A stretch of DNA of 64,000 nucleotides from Octopus sinensis (lineage: Eukaryota). Positions 1 through 19,597 of this stretch are shown here, piece by piece (position 1 is the stretch's first letter; every line of letters starts with the position of its first letter). The position numbers were made by a program, and so were the translations under genes. A model generated the notes under the pieces. It saw only the letters and a program-made list of their open reading frames with translations, had not been told where the DNA came from and did no database searches. Location of the stretch: contig NC_043003.1 in assembly GCF_006345805.1 (NCBI RefSeq), positions 25,420,001-25,484,000 on the forward strand. The letters are read 5' to 3'.

Positions 1-1248
1 GTATCTAGACACAGCTCTGCAGTTTGTCAAACAGCCCAACCCTTGTCAGCGTGGAAAATGGATATTAAATGATGAAGATGATGATCATCCACAGAGAAAA
101 TACTAAGAAAAAAGTATGGCAGAATATACTAAACTCCTAATATCACAATCCCTCACATCTCACTTAGAGGTATACCAACTACATATTCACCCAAATGCTA
201 TATCAGGTTATCAATCATCCCTCATAAATCCCAAGAAATTCAGTTCATAATGTCCATGGTCATATCAATTCCTGCCAGAATTTTTTTATCATTCTTGAGT
301 TGAAAGACATCAGATGAGATTCACATTTTGAAAACCAAACAACTGCACATGACAAAAACGGTCTTCACATTACCAGATTACATTATGGCATATTCAAGGT
401 ATTTCAAAAATTAATTTGGTTCAAAGTACCCCATTACACAGAATTCCCAATGAGGAGGAGTCTAAGTGGTCATTCAATTTGGTAGAAATAGCAACCAAAT
501 CTCCTTACAATAATCAAAACCAAAGGAAGTCATATAGGACTATGTAGTCCAAAAGAAACTACATCTGAAATGATGAGATGGTTGTAGCTAGAAAGTCTTT
601 GATAATAGGTCGGTTAACCCTTTAGTGTTTACATTATTCTGCCAAAATTAATCCCTTTTCATCCACATTGTTTTGAACTAATCATGCATTATCTTGTAGT
701 ATGAGCTGTTAATTTTTAAAACGATATTGTAGGGTTGGTGTGAGAGACCAGATCTGGCCTGTTTGAACATAAAACAGGCAGAATACTTTTGGCCGGATAT
801 GGCCGGTTTAAATAAAGGACTGAACAACAAAATAACTCTGCACATTTTGCAAAACATCCTCCCCTATTTTATAATCTGAATGTACCCAGCTGGTTGCTTT
901 CATCGTTCTAGCAAGATATTTTGCCTTAGTTACCAACATTGATTAAAAAAAGGGACTAGTAGAGCCTCTGTCTGCTAGAAACAGCAACCAAACCTTGTTC
1001 AAATCATACTCTAGAAAGGACACATTGGATACACTCTACTTGGTGAATAAAGAAAGGATGATCTGGTACTAAATAACAGCAAATGAATACTCAAGTCAAC
1101 AAGAGATGTTCTGCGTGACAGTGCAACCTGTAGGATATTAGTAACCAAATCTCACCTAAATCACACCCTACAATCATATAATAGAAAGGATACATAAGAG
1201 ATTATATTCTCAGATAAGCTATGTCAAAAGGATGAGTAGAATGTTTAT

Positions 1249-1520
1249 AGGTGCAGGAGTGGCTGTGTGGTAAGTAGCTTGCTTACCAACCACATGGTTT
1301 CGGGTTCAGTCCCACTACGTGGCACCTGGGGCAAGTGTCTTCTACTATAGCCTTGGGCCAACCAAAGCCTTATCAGTGGATTTGGTAGACAGAAACTGAA
1401 GGAAGCCCGTCGTATATATGTATATGTATGTGTGTCTGTGTTTGTCCCCCTACCATCGCTTGACAACCAATGGTGGTGTGTTTACTTCCCCGTAACTTAG
1501 CGTTTCGGCAAAAGAGACCG
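1249..1520 (+). mobile_element. tRNA-derived SINE family 1 (octopus OK/OR-like), 3' truncated
   Basis: Head with A box (TGGCTGTGTGG) and B box (GGTTCAGTCCC), then a CORE-like GGGCAAGTGTCTT segment. Matches the copies at 12659 and 51079. Confidence 0.85.
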
Positions 1521-1909
1521 AACTTAACACACAGCCACTCCTATGCCTATGTTGAGTACTTTTCTTTCATGTGTACACATTTATGCATTATACAGGTATA
1601 TCATCGTTCCATTCTTGCATGAGTCAGACTGAATTTGTTGAGGTGGGTTTTCTATGTAGCCATTCTATCTTTCATTAAGACATAGTTTGCCTAGGACTAC
1701 ATTTTCCAATGTCTTTCCTTGTAAAGTGATTTGAGGGAGATTTGTACCATATAGAGCCAAGTGAGCAGAGCTGTAATAAAAAAATGTTCCAGCTTTGACC
1801 AGTAGGATCTGATTTAAGGAAAATTTGGCCACTATTTCAAGCAGGTAGAGTGTAGAGGCTGAAGTTTCATATAACAACCAACATCCATCTAATAGAAATA
1901 GCAGTTAAA

Positions 1910-2314
1910 GGTGGCGAGCTGGCAGAAGCATTAGCACGCCGGGCGAAATGCCTAGCAGTATTTCGTCTGTCTTTGCGTTCTGAGTTCAAATTCTGCCGAA
2001 GTTGACTTTGCCATTCATCCTTTTGGGGTCGATAAATTAAGTACCAGTTACGTACTGGGGTCGATGTAATCAACTTAATACCTATGTCTGTCCATGTTTG
2101 TCCCCTCTATGTTTAACCCCTTGTAGGTAATAAAGAAATAGGTATTTTGTCTGTCTTTGCATTCTGAGTTCAAATTCCGCCGAAGTTGACTTTGCCTTTC
2201 ATCCTTTCGGGGTTGATAAATTAAGTACCAGTTATGCACTGGAGTCAATGTAATCGACTTAATCCCTTTGTCTGTCCCCTTTATGTTTAGCCCCATGTGG
2301 GCAATAAAGAAATA
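1910..2314 (+). mobile_element. tRNA-derived SINE family 2, internal dimer
   Basis: Head GGTGGCGAGCTGGCAGAA, B box GAGTTCAAATTC, core GCCTTTCATCCTTTCGGGGTCGATAAATTAAGTACC (resembles the Meta/MESC-type SINE core, recalled from memory). Body repeated twice. 16-bp TSD AGAAATAGCAGTTAAA (1894-1909; 2315-2330). Confidence 0.88.
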
Positions 2315-2968
2315 AGAAATAGCAGTTAAATCTCTCTTAAATTACGCTCTGTTATGAGAGGGCTCATTAGAGAAAAAAGACAAAATAGTCACTACAAGAA
2401 AGACTTTCACCATAGGTCTAACCTGAAGCTAAAAAAACTGAAGTAATGCTGTGATATATATTAAAACCTTGTGAACAGATACTGTAAATAAGAATGACAG
2501 ATACCTTTATTTAGTATTGGAGAACAAGCCAGTCATTGACAGACCTTGATATTTGGTTGCATGACCTGTCATGGATGTGGTTCAACTGTTGTTTAGCCCT
2601 AGGTCAGCCGTCATGAGGTAAAGCTATGATCATCAATGACATTCCAGCATTGATTAGTTTTCTTTCTTTCTTTTTTATAGGATAACATTGTCCAATTTGT
2701 CCCTTTCCCTGAAGACAGTAGTATGTGATTTGAAGGAGAGTTTTCTGTTATTTCCAGCGAGTCCAGATATACTGAACAGATGCTCTCGTTGACACTACAG
2801 CCATGGGAGATGTATGTCTGACGTGTGACCAGTAGAAATGTCCAGTTCTGTTTACATCGAAAGAATGCAGCATGCATGGCTAACTTAACATTATTACAAA
2901 TTGTTATTTACATAATTGCACTGCATAAATTAAATGTGACCATTTGCATTAATTAAATATTACACTTA

Positions 2969-3895
2969 CTAGACAGGATACAATCTACTTATGGTCATTA
3001 ACAAGTGGCCAAAAGGTTTCTTTTTCACCTTATTTTTCCACAAAAATTCGTGGAGATACGACGAAAATAATGCATCACTGGTGCCGCATTGCTTTTTTAA
3101 TTTTCTTTTCGCTCGCATCCATGTATTCTCGATAATCTGTGCGTGTACATTCGGATCGTTTTGGTTCACGATATCCCGTTCGTGCACCACAGAGTCGTTC
3201 GAGTACAATCTAAAATCGATATCTTTCAGCAGATCGAAAGATACCCATGCATCAGCAATGATGCGGCTACCCGGAAGGATCCATTGTCGGATGATAGGCT
3301 CCAACGTTTGCTGTTTTCTGTTGGGGACTTCAACCATACAGCACTTACCACTCCGGCGTTCAATCGCACCAAACACCCAGTGACCAGCCCTCCACTGGCC
3401 CTTGTGGTATCTGCTGTTTAGAAATTTCGATTCACCCAGCTCTACCACAATGGGAGTACCGTCCTCGCCCACACCTCCAAGTACTGTGGGTGATTTCTGG
3501 AGATCCCATTCCACTACTTCTCGCAGAAAATTACACCAGTCTACAATTGTGTTCTTATTCACATGGAGTTGCTCCATCATTTCTTTCTGCTGGTAGTCCT
3601 CAACCCACATGTTAATTAAAAGAAGAAGGTCCAGTAACGACATGCGACTTCTTTCAAAAAAAGACCCTTTTCGAATGGATTGGGTAAAATTGTGCCGGCG
3701 ACAGTTCCAAATCTTCTTGTCGAGTTTCTTCGTCAGAGTAATAAGTGTACACGGTTCGCCACACGTACCACAGTTGACAGAGTTACTTAAGAGTCTCCGT
3801 TTTGCCATCCATTCAATTGCTGAATCTATGTCCATTGTTTGAGTGGCTAACTCCAGCAGTGTACATGATTCTTCTTTGATTTCATCTTCATCCAT
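2969..3895 (-). CDS. Merlin/IS1595 (ISXO2-like DDE) transposase-derived protein, 308 aa, intact ORF, first catalytic Asp replaced by Gly
   Basis: N-terminal CGTC...WNCRRH zinc-ribbon-like motif, SIRKGSFF, TIVDWCNFLREV, VVELGESKF (family consensus VVEIDESKF), WVFGAIER, VPNRKQQTLEPIIRQWILPGSRIIADAW and HAQIIENTW. Probable ATG at 3895, just after a TTGTAG acceptor (AG at 3922-3921). The ORF-track extension to 4021 is probably intronic. Confidence 0.88.
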   Translation of the reverse strand: MDEDEIKEESCTLLELATQTMDIDSAIEWMAKRRLLSNSVNCGTCGEPCTLITLTKKLDKKIWNCRRHNFTQSIRKGSFFERSRMSLLDLLLLINMWVEDYQQKEMMEQLHVNKNTIVDWCNFLREVVEWDLQKSPTVLGGVGEDGTPIVVELGESKFLNSRYHKGQWRAGHWVFGAIERRSGKCCMVEVPNRKQQTLEPIIRQWILPGSRIIADAWVSFDLLKDIDFRLYSNDSVVHERDIVNQNDPNVHAQIIENTWMRAKRKLKKQCGTSDALFSSYLHEFLWKNKVKKKPFGHLLMTISRLYPV

Positions 3896-4791
3896 CACTT
3901 TGTCCGCAATTCTTTTTCTTCTACAATACGTCATTACGAAAGAGTAAATTGAAGTGGAGTGAGAACAATAAATTTCCTTCGAACTGTTTTCATTTACTGT
4001 GTGAAAGAAAGGATGATACAAAGCCAGTTACATGGAACATAATAGTTATTGATTAGTTATATAATTTTAAAAATGAACAATCAGAAGTTAAAAAATAAAG
4101 AAAATAGATTTTGAATTATTTTTTATTGAATACGTACGTACAAGAAAGTTTAATTAAATATACAAAATTCGGTGAATGTTTATCAAAGTTCGAAAACTTC
4201 CTACCGGAAATGGGATTTCAGATTTCGGAAAACTGAATGAAATCAAAACTATACAATCAAAGGAGAGAACAAAGAAAAAAGGATTTACATGGAACTCTAA
4301 AGTCAAAATACAACTTCGTAGTATTATGACATTTAATAATGTTAATAATGTAACGTGATGGACTTAAACAAAAATGTTAAACTTGAAGTTGTATGAGTGT
4401 TTTTTTCTCCTTTCCTGCTAAACACCATACCTTATGGTGAGCCTTTACTCCTTCAGAATTGTAAATGACCTGACGCAAATGAAATTTCCAAATATGCAAA
4501 CGATTTCTCAGGGTTTTTTTGTTTTTTCTTCTTCTCTTGAGACAAATTTGAAAGTTTCGACAAGTTTACACAATGGAACTCTTGTAACAAGGGGAGTTAA
4601 TTCATTTAAATAGTAACAGAAGAGTTTCTTCTCACTCTTAGCAACGAAGGTGAGGCGGGGGGGGGGGCTATATAGTCGTTCGGTAAGTAGCAGACAAATA
4701 TCCTCCTTAGATACATCGGACTATGATCAATGGCTAGACCACTTGATCATATGTGCCTTGACGAGGAAAAGTCTCCAACAATTAAATTGTC

Positions 4792-5244
4792 GGCGATATT
4801 TCGCTTGTCGTAGCACAAGTTTCCGTCGATTTCCGTAAAAAACTTTTATTTTTTTACATAAGTAATGAGAGCGAAAGAGACTAAGAGGAAGCGATTTTAT
4901 GACGAGGAAATTTCTCTTTGAAGTCCCCGTGTGTGTGTTTGATGGGGTGTGGGAGACAGACAGTATGTTGTGTAAGTGAAGTGCTTCTGTTAGTGTGTGC
5001 GAAGAGACAGAGAGAGTAATGTGTGAAAGAGAGAGATAACTGAAATTTTTTACTCGGTGTATGTGTATATGTATGTCTGCATGTATGTGTGTGTGTGTAT
5101 GTATCTATGTATGTGTGTGTGTATGTATCTATGTATGTGTGTGTATGTATGTATGGCCGATTCAGTGTTTACATTTTTTACGGAAATCGACAATCGACGG
5201 AGGAAATCGACGGAAACGTGTGCTACGACAAGCGAAACTTCGCC
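4792..5244. mobile_element. Merlin-like MITE (453 bp)
   Basis: ~43-bp TIRs (GGCGATATTTCGCTTGTCGTAGCACAAGTTTCCGTCGATTTCC at 4792 and its near-perfect reverse complement ending at 5244). Flanked by an 8-bp near-duplication, AAATTGTC (4784-4791) / AAATTGGC (5245-5252). GG-starting TIRs with an 8-bp TSD are Merlin hallmarks. Internal (GT)-rich microsatellite. Confidence 0.8.
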
Positions 5245-8215
5245 AAATTGGCGATATTTCGAGCAGCCTTTAAACGATCTGGACGGAGACTTCGTGGTCA
5301 TTTGACAATTAGTGGGCCGCAGGTGTTAATGTGGTGTTTAACATTATTATACTTGATTGCATTGCTTCTAAACACCAGACGAGAAATGTTTGGGTACTTA
5401 CGGAGAACAGAGCTGTATCATGAATACAAAATAACAGGGCTTGTTGTGGGTGTCCAGGCAGTTATACCGCACACCAAGAAGTTGGTTATACTATCAATAA
5501 GCCTTCTGCGTTTAACATCTACTGAGAAGCTGAAATAGCGAAGGAAATCAGCTCCTAAAATTGGAATCAGCTAGTTAGCGAAGATGAAAACCTATTGAAA
5601 AGAATGATAAAGGCCTAAATCCAGAATAAGAGACTGTTCACTGATTGTTAGAATCAGTGAATGATCGCCACTTGCAGAAATATTGGCGTAGGTTTTCTAA
5701 TGTATTAGGGAAACTGAAATTTTGCTTACCTCGGTACCCAAATTGACAAGGAAACATGTACCTGATAGTTTGTCACTACTGAAAAAGAGATGGTTTTGTT
5801 TATTGGAACCAGGCATATTTGCTGCCCTTAATCCCAGGCTGCTTTGTCTCCTGGAATAGGAGTCTTTTCAGAAAAAGAACAGGGTGGCTCACAGTTGCAA
5901 TTGTACTTGACAAATTTGTAGTGACACCAGGAAATCCAATCAGGCTGTGGAGTACAGATGGAGCTTTAAGTACATCAATAATTAAAATACCAAGAAGCGA
6001 TCTAACTTGAAGCAATGTGAAAATCAGTGCTGGGTTGTGTAATCAGAATGGTGATACTTGCAAAATAACAGTTGCCATATCTATGACAGAAAAGGGTACT
6101 GATATGTCATGCTCTGATTAGAGTACTAGTAGAAAGTCCAATTGTTGGTTTCATGTGGTTTGATTTGTCTCAAATCATAACAGAGCTGTGCAGTTTGTTT
6201 CTTTATGGAGATCACCAAATGTAACAGATGATTGATTACTAGCCTTCAATAAAAGCATACTATAATGCACCTGGAGCATTAGTAGAAATGATTTATATAA
6301 AACCATAGTCAATGGAACTTTAAAGATTGGATTTTTTTCAAGTCCCTGTTGAACAATGAGGAAATTCAAGTGATGGGCCCGTGGCTTCTTGTTCACAAGA
6401 CTACTTTCACTCACAGCCTGACTTCTCACTATGCCAGAGTGACAATCATCTATGAGAGCATCTAGAACTTGCTGAGTTCAGTTCCTCCAACAAGATGACA
6501 TCATGCTCACTTCTGTGAAACCAGAGTTAAGTCGATTTCCAGTAGAGCTTGGTCTTTCAGATGGTTCTATATCTTCATCTGAAAAAATATCTATTCACCC
6601 ATCTAATTATTTGGAATGAACATATTGATGAAGAGTGTTGATGTTAAATAAGATGGACTGTTGGATCATATTTGTTAGGATTCAACTGTCTCAGTAAAAC
6701 TTCACCATATTCAGAAAGCCAGTCAGGTAAAGATTGCAGTGCTTAAATATAAGTGGCCTGGTTAGTCACTGTGCAAAGGAGGGGGCCGAATCACAGAGCA
6801 ATTCCCATAAAGCATCACTCTATCATTTGTCTGGTGAGTGTTATTATTTTCCTAAGACTATCCTTTTAGACAATCTACTTGACTGTATCCTGGAGGATAG
6901 TATAGATGGATTGGTCATAGTTCGGTCATTTTTATTGATCCCCACTAAAAGTACAAACATCTCAATACATAAATAGAGATTGTTGGTCTGAATAGACTGA
7001 AGCAGGAGACATGAAGAATATATTTTAAAGACAATGAACTAGTGTAGAAACTGTCATATGTGAACATGAAAAGTGTAAAAGGATGCCTTAAGTATTCATC
7101 TATAACAACAAACAAATAGAAAAAAAAAGGTAGACTATGGCAGAGTACCTTTGAAGTTGACATGGAGATTCACAAATGGCTTTATGGATTTGATAAGTTT
7201 AGCATGAGAAGAATGAAAAAAAATCATGATTTCATGTTTGATATGACCTTTCTTTTATAAGATGGTAGGGTGAAATTTGAAGGAAATTTGACTGCTATAT
7301 CTAGCAAGTCAAACAACCACATAGTGGCTGCTTCTTGTTGGTTTTGTATATTACAATTATTGCTTACTCAATATTTCCCATACTGTGTCTTTTCTATATC
7401 GTCATCTTTTAATGTCCATTCCCCATGCTGGCATGGATTTCACTGTTTGACAGGAGTTGGCCAGTTGGAGAGTTGTTTGGGTGCCATTTGTCTGTTTTGG
7501 CATGGTTTCTACAGCTGCATGCCCTTCCTAATGCCAACCACTTTACAGTGTACTGGGTGCTTTTAATTCAAAACACAAACTAGGGATCTTTTCCTTTTGA
7601 ACGGCACTTTGTAACATAATTTCTAGGTAACTAAAAGGTTTTAAACTTCGTATACTGGTAGAATGTGTTTATAAAACATCATTTTCTCTTGGCTTTATTG
7701 AGAAAATTCTATATGTTGTAACATATTTCGTCTTTAATTTCGAGCATTTCGGCAATTTTAACCAATCACTGGCGTCCATTTAGGTAAATAACATTCTGTG
7801 CATAATGAATATGTCCCTCCTTTAAGAAACAGATTGGGTTTATTTACATTTGTGAAGAAAAAAGATACCCTTCGCACACAATACGATAATGACGACCCTT
7901 GTGTAATAACATTCTTCACCACATGGTCAAATACATCAAAAATATTCTTTCCTCTTTCTGTAAATATATCTGACAACATACATATTTATTCTGAAAGAAT
8001 ACTTTTATTAAAAATAACTAGGTGGTAAGTATAGTGTGGATAAATTTGTGGTTATATAATAATGCAGTGGGATAAGCTACTACTCAGAAAAATGACTTCC
8101 CACGAATAGCTTGGCAATATCAATTTTCTCCTATGTAAGCATTATTATGACATCATAACAATATTTGTTGGATGTATTTTGTGACAGATAGAACAATGTT
8201 ATACTTTCTCTTTAA

Positions 8216-8489: not shown

Positions 8490-9011
8490 TTATTGTTTCT
8501 CTCCTGTATGAACACGTTTATGACAAGATAAAATATTACTTCTGGAAAAAGTTTTACCACAAATATCACAGTGATATGGTTTCTCTCCTGTGTGAATACG
8601 TATATGGGTATATAAATTAGTATTATGAGAAAACATTTTACCACAAATATCACAGTGGTATTTTTTCTCTCCTGTGTGAACACGTTTATGAGAAGATAAA
8701 TCACTATTTCTAGAAAAAGCTTTACCACAGATATCACACTGATGTGGTTTCTCTCCTGTGTGAATTCGTTTATGAACAGATAAACTACTTCTACGAGATA
8801 ATGACTTTCCACAAATATCACAATAGTAATATTTCCCACCGGTGTGAATATGTTTGTGGCAAGCTAAATGATCACTCCGTGAGAAAGATTTGCCACAAAT
8901 ATCACAGTGATATGGTTTTTCATCTGTGTGAATACGTTTGTGTTTCGTCAAGTTACTCTTTAAAGAAAATGTTTTATCACAGATATCGCAGGAATATGGC
9001 CTTTTCTCCAT
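8490..9011 (-). CDS. C2H2 zinc-finger protein A (173 aa, 6 tandem Kruppel-type fingers)
   Basis: Six CxxC-x12-HxxxH repeats with TGEK-type linkers. The upstream region (9012-9220) is a disrupted homologue of the paralog's N-terminus. Confidence 0.85.
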   Translation of the reverse strand: MEKRPYSCDICDKTFSLKSNLTKHKRIHTDEKPYHCDICGKSFSRSDHLACHKHIHTGGKYYYCDICGKSLSRRSSLSVHKRIHTGEKPHQCDICGKAFSRNSDLSSHKRVHTGEKKYHCDICGKMFSHNTNLYTHIRIHTGEKPYHCDICGKTFSRSNILSCHKRVHTGEKQ

Positions 9012-18742: not shown

Positions 18743-19597
18743 TCAGGGTGGGAGGGATTTTCCTTCTGAATGAAGATATTTGTGTCTTGTTAAATTGCTA
18801 CTTCGAGAAAAGGCCTTCCCACACATATCACAATCATATGACATCTCTCCTGTGTGAACACGTTTATGAGTCAATAAACAACCACGACTGGAAAATGTTT
18901 CGTCACAAACATGACATTGGTGTTTCTCTCCAGTGTGAATACGCATGTGTTTGTGGTAGGTAGCATTATAAGCAAATTTTTCACTACAAATATCACACTG
19001 GTATGGTTTGCCTCCTGTATGAACACGTTGATGCCATGCCAGATAAGAAATTCCAGAAAAATTTCTACCACAGATTTCACACTTATATGGTTTTTCACCT
19101 ATATGACGGCGTTTGTGCTGGAATAATTTATCTTTGCATATAAACATTTTCCCACAGATATGACATTCATACGATTTCTCTCCTGTGCGAATAGGTTTAT
19201 GGCTAGTTAAATCATTACTCTGAGAATCTGTCTTGTCAGAGTGATATAGTTTCTCGTCTGTGTGTGTATCATTGTGTGTAGTTAAGGCAATATCTGGAGA
19301 CACTGTTTCATCAGTGATATCACAGTGATATGACATTTCTCCTGTCTGAACACAATGGTGGGAATTTAACAAACTATATTTAATAAATCTTTTATCACAA
19401 ATTTGGCACTCATAAAATTTTGATCTTATGTGAAATAACTTATGTTCACTTAATTCACTTTGTACTATGAATGCTCTTCCACAGATTTCACAGAGATAAG
19501 GTCTTTTCGGAGATATTTTCAGAGTTTCTTTAGAATATTCTGTTCCTTTAAACTGTGTTATACCTTGAATCTGACTCTCACAGAATTCTTTCTCCAT
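18743..19597 (-). CDS. C2H2 zinc-finger protein B (284 aa; 6 intact and 3 degenerate fingers)
   Basis: MEKEFCESQ leader followed by C2H2 repeats with TGEK-like linkers. Fingers 2-4 have lost zinc ligands. The coding exon acceptor (TTTCAG) is at ~20100, homologous to the one at ~9654 in ZNF-A. Confidence 0.92.
   Translation of the reverse strand: MEKEFCESQIQGITQFKGTEYSKETLKISPKRPYLCEICGRAFIVQSELSEHKLFHIRSKFYECQICDKRFIKYSLLNSHHCVQTGEMSYHCDITDETVSPDIALTTHNDTHTDEKLYHSDKTDSQSNDLTSHKPIRTGEKSYECHICGKMFICKDKLFQHKRRHIGEKPYKCEICGRNFSGISYLAWHQRVHTGGKPYQCDICSEKFAYNATYHKHMRIHTGEKHQCHVCDETFSSRGCLLTHKRVHTGEMSYDCDMCGKAFSRSSNLTRHKYLHSEGKSLPP

Follow-up and report, generated by a model that had tools for sequence, protein, structure and literature searches.

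The minus-strand open reading frame (ORF) at 2969..3934 of the Octopus sinensis sequence studied here encodes a protein, P0001, that derives from a Merlin transposase, and we estimate the probability that it is a gene domesticated by its host at about 0.95. The gene is under purifying selection, and its transcript uses a dead zinc-finger coding exon as 3' UTR. Judged from its residues, the protein has probably lost its transposase chemistry, and we somewhat favor that the host keeps it as a DNA or chromatin binder that does not cut. We infer a nuclear location and any regulatory role. Throughout, "the window" is the whole stretch of DNA that was analyzed (64,000 nucleotides), to which positions refer unless coordinates of the genome (G000) are given.

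A single-copy Merlin-derived gene and its surroundings

The gene lies within a cluster of C2H2 zinc-finger genes:
2969..3934, minus strand: single-exon coding sequence (CDS) of 321 aa for the Merlin transposase-derived protein P0001 (ORF list, Pfam, one 90% cluster with the orthologues P0002, P0113, P0114 and P0115)
8490..9011, minus strand: C2H2 zinc-finger ORF of the surrounding cluster (ORF list, Pfam)
18743..19597, minus strand: C2H2 zinc-finger ORF of the surrounding cluster (ORF list, Pfam)
4792..5244, no strand: young Merlin-type MITE (GG...CC, 43-nt TIR, 8-bp TSD with one mismatch), inserted separately

The ORF runs from an ATG at 3934 to the stop codon at 2969 and counts 321 codons. 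A preliminary description had given it as an uninterrupted ORF of 308 codons; the frame is indeed open, and the shorter length results from counting at M14. M1 is the homologous start, as 43 of the 46 outgroup rows having a residue there show methionine, and the 321-aa record of O. bimaculoides agrees with it. A short upstream ORF (3934-3993, minus strand), whose stop overlaps the main ATG (TAATG), may be due to chance. Pfam DDE_Tnp_IS1595 (PF12762) matches P0001 with 61.7 bits and an E-value of 1e-16 (cut-off 27). The other transposon ORFs of the window had been described as shattered, and no further long one was found among its 12 ATG ORFs of at least 100 aa.

Records of O. vulgaris and O. 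sinensis match proteins of the 2.72 Gb genome at 96-100%, which places it in the vulgaris group of octopuses. Searches of this genome at the DNA level returned one full-length match, this locus, and 12 others of 47-70 nt. At the protein level 131 matches were obtained, the next best at 40-43% identity. Thus, the gene is present in a single copy, which settles the copy number that the preliminary description had proposed to determine. Employing the intact-DDE outgroup protein P0003 as query, we retrieved this gene first at 51% and then a match at 44%, so the genome yielded no intact member of the source family.

Active Merlin elements were recognized by TIRs of 24-462 bp starting with GG and a TSD of 8-9 bp; Merlin TIRs and TSDs are defined in passages of PMC8101967. 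Scanning all GG...CC pairs from -3000 to 9000 yielded five weak candidates, none with a TSD, and no inverted repeat was found around the ORF, in agreement with the earlier remark that no TIRs bracket it. Our positive control on C4 (L016) displayed 421-nt TIRs and an 8-bp TSD, and a locus on an unplaced contig (L011) showed 106-nt TIRs. The MITE at 4792..5244 was considered as the gene's own end and rejected, because a TSD of its own flanks it and its copies are young. Its family comprises 1258 candidates, of which all 40 scored ones are 95-100% identical; among ten copies with both ends, seven show a TSD. A second TIR-like start is located at 5250-5265, just after the MITE, and older copies of the MITE (74-78%) are located close to L019 and L021, which are Merlin-derived genes as well.

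Further Merlin loci were observed in the course of these searches. Three intact-DDE Merlins on C2, C3 and C6 (L002, L003 and L004) are 99% identical over the entire 3.8 kb retrieved. Their mobile unit should hence exceed 3.8 kb; no ends were found within that length. At C18:28.003-28.007 Mb (L014), two Merlin ORFs sit in a long perfect inverted arrangement with arms of 899 nt and 368 nt, which represents either a fold-back element or an assembly artefact.

The transcript and its zinc-finger-derived 3' UTR

The transcript was traced in assembled contigs of sequencing runs whose type was guessed; five are RNA-like (X1, X2, X9, X13 and X17) and one is DNA-like (X19). The following features were delineated:
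3935..4032, minus strand: 5' leader, covered unspliced; contigs of the ORF end at 3968-4032 in five runs (contigs)
2505..2968, minus strand: initial part of the 3' UTR, up to the donor AAG/GTATCT (contig breaks at 2505)
1..2504, minus strand: 3'-UTR intron of 2593 nt (GT-AG), extending past the window start (exact match of the loose letters)
G000:C7:25391203-25393119, opposite strand: intact 19-finger C2H2 ORF L043, paralogue of the decayed exon
G000:C7:25400289-25402079, opposite strand: intact 19-finger C2H2 ORF L042, paralogue of the decayed exon

In X2 and X9, which stem from two studies, the contigs depart from the genome at 2505 and continue with the same 30 letters. X13 carries 59 loose letters at this position, X17 ends there and X1 halts before it, while the large DNA-like run X19 reads through 2505 unspliced. 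The 30 letters have one exact match in the window and the 40 kb beyond its start, and a polypyrimidine tract and an AG precede the exon start at G000:C7:25419911. The splice donor lies 464 nt past the stop codon, and the intron was absent from the preliminary description. An intron at this distance from the stop could invite nonsense-mediated decay. The gene is thus transcribed as a processed mRNA, as far as the guessed type of the runs holds.

At the 5' end, an intron from 4204 to 3921 had been proposed that the contigs do not show: RNA-like contigs read across 3921 in five of five runs and across 4204 in four of five, and this joint is absent from those listed for X2, X9 and X17. An alternative pair, with the donor AG/GTATGG at 4430 and an acceptor at 3998-3997, looks stronger and was likewise not seen spliced in the contigs, which drop rare forms and might miss a minor isoform. 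All five RNA-like runs share a gap in cover at ~4030-4110.

The exon that begins at G000:C7:25419911 is a decayed C2H2 zinc-finger coding exon, and its closest paralogues are the two intact 19-finger ORFs 20-29 kb away. The 380-aa model of O. bimaculoides (P0113) and the model of O. vulgaris (P0002) attach parts of the same exon to the ORF, which indicates that both are adjacent in those genomes as well. With respect to this one neighbor, the position of the gene is conserved, the orthologous decayed exon following the ORF in the models of both species. We considered a Merlin-zinc-finger fusion protein, as these two models would have it, and rejected it: their acceptors are weak and differ from each other, the joint occurs in no contig and the exon is broken. 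Moreover, the internal donor at 3029 is crossed unspliced by contigs of X1, X2, X9 and X17, and a weak search for a longer homologue carrying such a fusion found none. Hence, both fusion models are likely prediction artefacts.

The layout suggests that the gene took over a zinc-finger transcript. A Merlin element, of a family for which no intact copy was found, would have landed ahead of the coding exon in a duplicated C2H2 gene. Transcripts would then have read the Merlin ORF first and spliced onto the zinc-finger exon, which would have lost its reading frame and come to serve as 3' UTR. The ends of the element would have eroded and the active site changed (D1 to G and 14 more conserved core positions), after which the protein would nearly have frozen for at least ~34 million years. 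We infer the order of these events. Since no homology was found between the upstream DNA of the gene and the intact zinc-finger paralogues, a capture of their promoter is unproven.

Conservation, an altered catalytic core and its possible function

To place the changes in P0001, we compared it with outgroup homologues at 90 family-conserved sites, i.e., those shared by at least 90% of the outgroup. P0001 is changed at 19 of them, while outgroup rows have 1.5 changed sites in the median and never more than 7. The changes concentrate in the core (residues 156-270; 15 of 45 sites) and are rare in the N-terminal half (2 of 26) and the C-terminal helices (2 of 19), and the core differs from the remainder (15/45 vs 4/45) with p 0.009. 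In our trees, the stem branch measures 0.72-0.76 changes per column and the crown ~0.03. A long phase of change was thus followed by near stasis.

The 90% cluster contains five members, namely P0001, one O. vulgaris model, two O. bimaculoides models and one Logan protein, and 18-19 of the 19 derived residues are common to them (19 of 19 in O. bimaculoides). None of the other proteins among the 280 with a match shares more than 4 of the 19. The O. bimaculoides protein differs from P0001 at 4 of 321 residues (98.8% identity) and the Logan protein (P0115) at 11 of 308 in addition to one insertion; both keep the glycine at position 167. A passage of 10.1101/2023.05.16.540928, citing Jiang et al. 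2022, dates the split of O. bimaculoides to ~34 Mya. No orthologue was found outside this one octopus cluster, and no match falls between 96% and 58% identity. A protein of Argonauta hians (P0015) was rejected as orthologue on account of 45% identity, an intact DDE triad and fewer than 4 of the 19 derived residues.

As a local neutral control we employed the decayed downstream zinc-finger exon (69 codons; 95% interval 4-20%), whose broken fingers are the same in O. bimaculoides and here. Between the species, 5/55 and 2/14 of its residues differ (7/69), with at least one frameshift between both parts. Against this control, the 4/321 differences of the ORF yield a Fisher p of 0.0007, in a test that operates at the protein level and is not a codon-model dN/dS. 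Simulated neutral change at the level of the control (2000 runs) produced 34 differences and a stop codon in 88%; at the lower 95% bound it produced 14 differences, with a probability of 0.001 for four or fewer. Furthermore, all four allelic variants of the ORF are synonymous third-position transitions (p ~0.012, six runs). The gene is therefore under purifying selection. The preliminary description had called it host-co-opted and had proposed to look for orthologues and synteny; no near-identical TIR-flanked family exists in our searches, the orthologues exist, keep the glycine and share the downstream neighbor exon, and their divergence is far below that of the neutral control.

The catalytic and structural features of the protein are as follows:
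3434..3436, minus strand: G167 (GGT), position of the first catalytic Asp, in strand 163-171 (alignment, model; G in 5/5 orthologous records)
3251..3253, minus strand: D228, second catalytic Asp, kept (D in 58/58 outgroup rows; one synonymous allele here)
3128..3130, minus strand: E269, catalytic Glu, kept (E in 57/58 outgroup rows)
3692..3772, minus strand: predicted zinc ribbon C55-x2-C58...C78-x2-H81 (C55, C58 and C78 invariant in 83 rows)
3494..3637, minus strand: predicted three-helix HTH-like bundle, residues 100-147 (helices in model, pLDDT 94.9)
3005..3469, minus strand: predicted RNase H/integrase-like core, residues 156-310 (structure comparison of the model)

The substitution of the first catalytic Asp by Gly, reported before, was recovered in the motif VVELGES, where 56 of the 58 outgroup homologues carry Asp; IIAD228 and QIIE269 preserve the other two residues, also as described. 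The triad thus reads G167-D228-E269, and an intact DDE triad is absent. Of the 215 non-octopus rows in which all three sites are aligned, 181 show DDE and 5 a Gly at the first site, so that this change, a single transition, is weak evidence by itself. Alignment with the 58 outgroup homologues also bears out the described drift of two motifs to SRYHKGQW and NDSVVHE, and the altered core motifs include the F-H-R-K-Y-x-R loop, S-D-G-W-x-x-Y and H246. At the sequence level, these residues support the view of the protein as probably non-catalytic.

In the N-terminal half, 24 of 26 conserved sites are kept, among them the zinc ligands and HTH positions. The zinc-ribbon region had been described as retained, and its three cysteines are invariant in all 83 alignment rows; the position of H81 holds Cys in 44 and His in 8 of the 58 outgroup rows. 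Atlas features of the predicted ribbon resemble those of Zn_ribbon_IS1595 clusters (score 0.93). Across the Merlin clade of alignment A2, residues 55-81 carry a CxxC...C motif that does not vary and is reminiscent of the zinc ribbon of IS1595, and Pfam Zn_ribbon_IS1595 matches weakly in 3 of the 83 rows. Passages of PMC8101967 present the described Merlins as being without a Zn_ribbon_IS1595 domain.

The full-length model of P0001 (pLDDT 87) agrees with the Pfam assignment, in line with the two comparisons suggested beforehand, and places G167 in the first strand of a predicted integrase-type core. This core superposes to 6rwl_A with a Z-score of 14.5 and an rmsd of 3.0 over 129 aligned residues, and Foldseek retrieves integrases at an E-value of 6e-5. 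As the first aligned residues are 160 and 57, residue 167 would fall on what we take to be D64 of integrase. The N-terminal half is modeled as a Cys-rich ribbon and three helices (pLDDT 94.9). Its helix bundle best matches homeodomain/HTH domains, weakly, with Z up to 4.5 where the mark of the tool is 8, and Foldseek matched nothing to this half at E 0.001. A sequence search of solved structures revealed no relative, and a homodimer prediction scored 0.24.

Several alternatives to a non-cutting DNA or chromatin binder were weighed. The protein might be a domesticated repressor of Merlin elements, in which a dead transposase occupies Merlin TIRs or poisons active multimers and recruits silencing. 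Potential targets are at hand, as the genome holds intact Merlin ORFs with TIRs and the young high-copy MITE, passages of PMC13282606 give two recently active Merlin families in O. vulgaris, and the full-length fold appears retained in the model. However, identity to the intact families is at most 40%, and the source family itself yielded no intact copy. An arms race also fits a sequence nearly frozen over ~34 My less well than a fixed host partner does. We therefore regard such a repressor as unlikely. We give still less credence to a domesticated nuclease with a rearranged site and a role in nicking or repair, in which either E165 or E168 stands in for D167, or a single metal is bound by D228 and E269. 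All orthologues preserve D228, E269, E165 and E168; this exceeds what a complete loss of chemistry requires and speaks against it, and the core is predicted to fold as an integrase-type RNase H domain. Yet G167 occupies the catalytic position of the first strand, 15 of 45 conserved core sites are changed, and E165 and E168 are no compensations, since they are invariant in intact transposases too. Conservation over the whole length including the C-terminal helices, together with the altered basic loop after D1, might also reflect a protein scaffold that does not bind DNA and keeps its fold for a partner interface; the preserved zinc ligands and HTH positions and a net charge more basic than that of four intact relatives (K+R 49, D+E 41) render this very improbable. 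Finally, a frame kept open by mere chance in a neutral relic or young insertion would fit an intronless CDS in a genome with many open Merlin ORFs and is nonetheless scarcely credible, given that sister copies and TIRs were not found, the allelic variants are all synonymous, 98.8% identity over ~34 My stands beside a control at ~90%, and O. bimaculoides shares the same 19 derived residues.

Related octopus genes and comparison with known systems

Besides the present gene, further Merlin-derived loci of the octopus genome carry altered catalytic sites:
G000:C7:107.49-107.53 Mb (3), C14:12.17-12.21 Mb (3), C15:54.755 Mb and C7:89.71 Mb: loci of a two-exon family
G000:C12:49678109-49679077 and C12:51548453-51549415: intronless Merlin ORFs L012 and L013, D1 to A
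G000:C3:144937780-144938736: intronless Merlin ORF L019, D1 to G, eroded core

The two-exon family (L005, L009, L015, L021, L024, L028, L029 and L060) has a common intron after ILPG, and the second exon was found for seven of the eight loci in the DNA fetched. In this family the catalytic Glu is Asp or Ser and the KY-x-RG loop is lost; D1 and D2 are each changed to G in one locus, and one locus has a stop in the present assembly. An orthologue of L005 in O. bimaculoides is 96% identical. L012 and L013 have O. bimaculoides records in the same 90% cluster (299/313 identical for one), while an exact look-up, by which 2 of 10 proteins were found, returned no cross-species counterpart of L019. For the intact element L002, the cluster comprises records of O. 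vulgaris and O. sinensis only. L002 also forms a group with the C3 and C12 genes, supported at 100/100, from which P0001 is separate; this indicates at least two origins. P0001 and the two-exon family are sisters in a quick tree of 92 rows (SH-aLRT 82) and not in a careful tree of 35 rows, which were picked by closeness, with long branches omitted. From their sequences, about 11 further genes would thus be Merlin-derived with altered catalytic sites, with at least two origins counting P0001, and the genome likely contains about a dozen tamed Merlin genes, P0001 included.

A broader scenario would see in these about a dozen octopod nuclear regulators, tamed at least twice, duplicated and deprived of cleavage in parallel, which form a silencing or transcription network at thousands of Merlin ends and MITEs beside the C2H2 expansion; P0001 would have taken over a zinc-finger transcript and turned its exon into a 3' UTR. 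We consider this scenario doubtful. In other organisms, four full-length Merlin-like proteins (P0079, P0089 from Arctopsyche grandis, P0163 and P0185) are possible further domestications. In three of them D1 is changed to G and the basic loop is eroded; in P0079, Merlin is fused to a zf-AD (PF07776) domain.

Few cut-and-paste superfamilies have been studied as little as Merlin, and the cases of its domestication found otherwise are suggestions from protists, as made in passages of PMC8101967. The same passages give the number of Merlin sequences in O. bimaculoides as 191, make no claim of domestication for them and name DNA binding, chromatin modulation and TE repression as services of domesticated transposases. 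No domesticated Merlin is described in passages of PMC13282606, PMC12988792 and PMC5753468, and our literature searches, with subscription papers and supplements outside their scope, found no paper on such genes in cephalopods. The contribution of transposons to octopus genome novelty is debated (PMC12988792, in passages that mention neither Merlin nor domestication nor transposase); P0001 and its related loci point to a small octopus gene class and offer this debate named protein-coding candidates. The gene is also a clear example of a transposase ORF with a dead host exon as UTR.

Compared with Merlin/IS1595 (ISXO2-like) transposases, P0001 has the same domain, three motif blocks and a length of ~320 aa, and its intact-DDE relatives P0003 and P0005 (sea spider Pycnogonum litorale) are 51-52% identical to it. 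Unlike such elements, it shows no TIRs or TSD, a single copy, D1 to G, an eroded core, a spliced 3' UTR and conserved orthologues. The putative domesticated Merlins of Stentor and Symbiodinium (passages of PMC8101967) likewise have a conserved ORF without TIR or TSD, a DDE triad that is not conserved, and some synteny. They differ in being protist genes proposed on the basis of ORF conservation, whereas P0001 is an animal case of Merlin domestication with evidence from selection, splicing and a neighbor; the words 'purifying' and 'intron' are absent from the text of PMC8101967. A possible further case is C. elegans MAB-31, a nuclear developmental regulator (passages of PMC2921377, according to which it resembles no other protein): a Hydra PF12762 protein (P0084) is named 'mab-31-like', and this name is a lead that MAB-31 may be Merlin-derived. 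The octopus TE-derived transcription factors of PMC10027918 are alike in the lineage-specific co-option of DNA-transposon proteins, in text portions with zero occurrences of 'Merlin' and 'IS1595'.

Domesticated transposases are known as a kind; within it, P0001 is well supported and its function is predicted. CENP-B (PMC4231638), ALP1/ALP2 (PMC7282668), the Xenopus Kolobok genes (PMC6004289) and PiggyMac-like proteins (PMC6143343) are immobile, conserved, transposase-derived host genes like the one described here, and several of these catalytically altered domesticated transposases arose repeatedly from one superfamily. They differ from P0001 in descending from the pogo, Harbinger, Kolobok and piggyBac superfamilies and in that function was tested in some.
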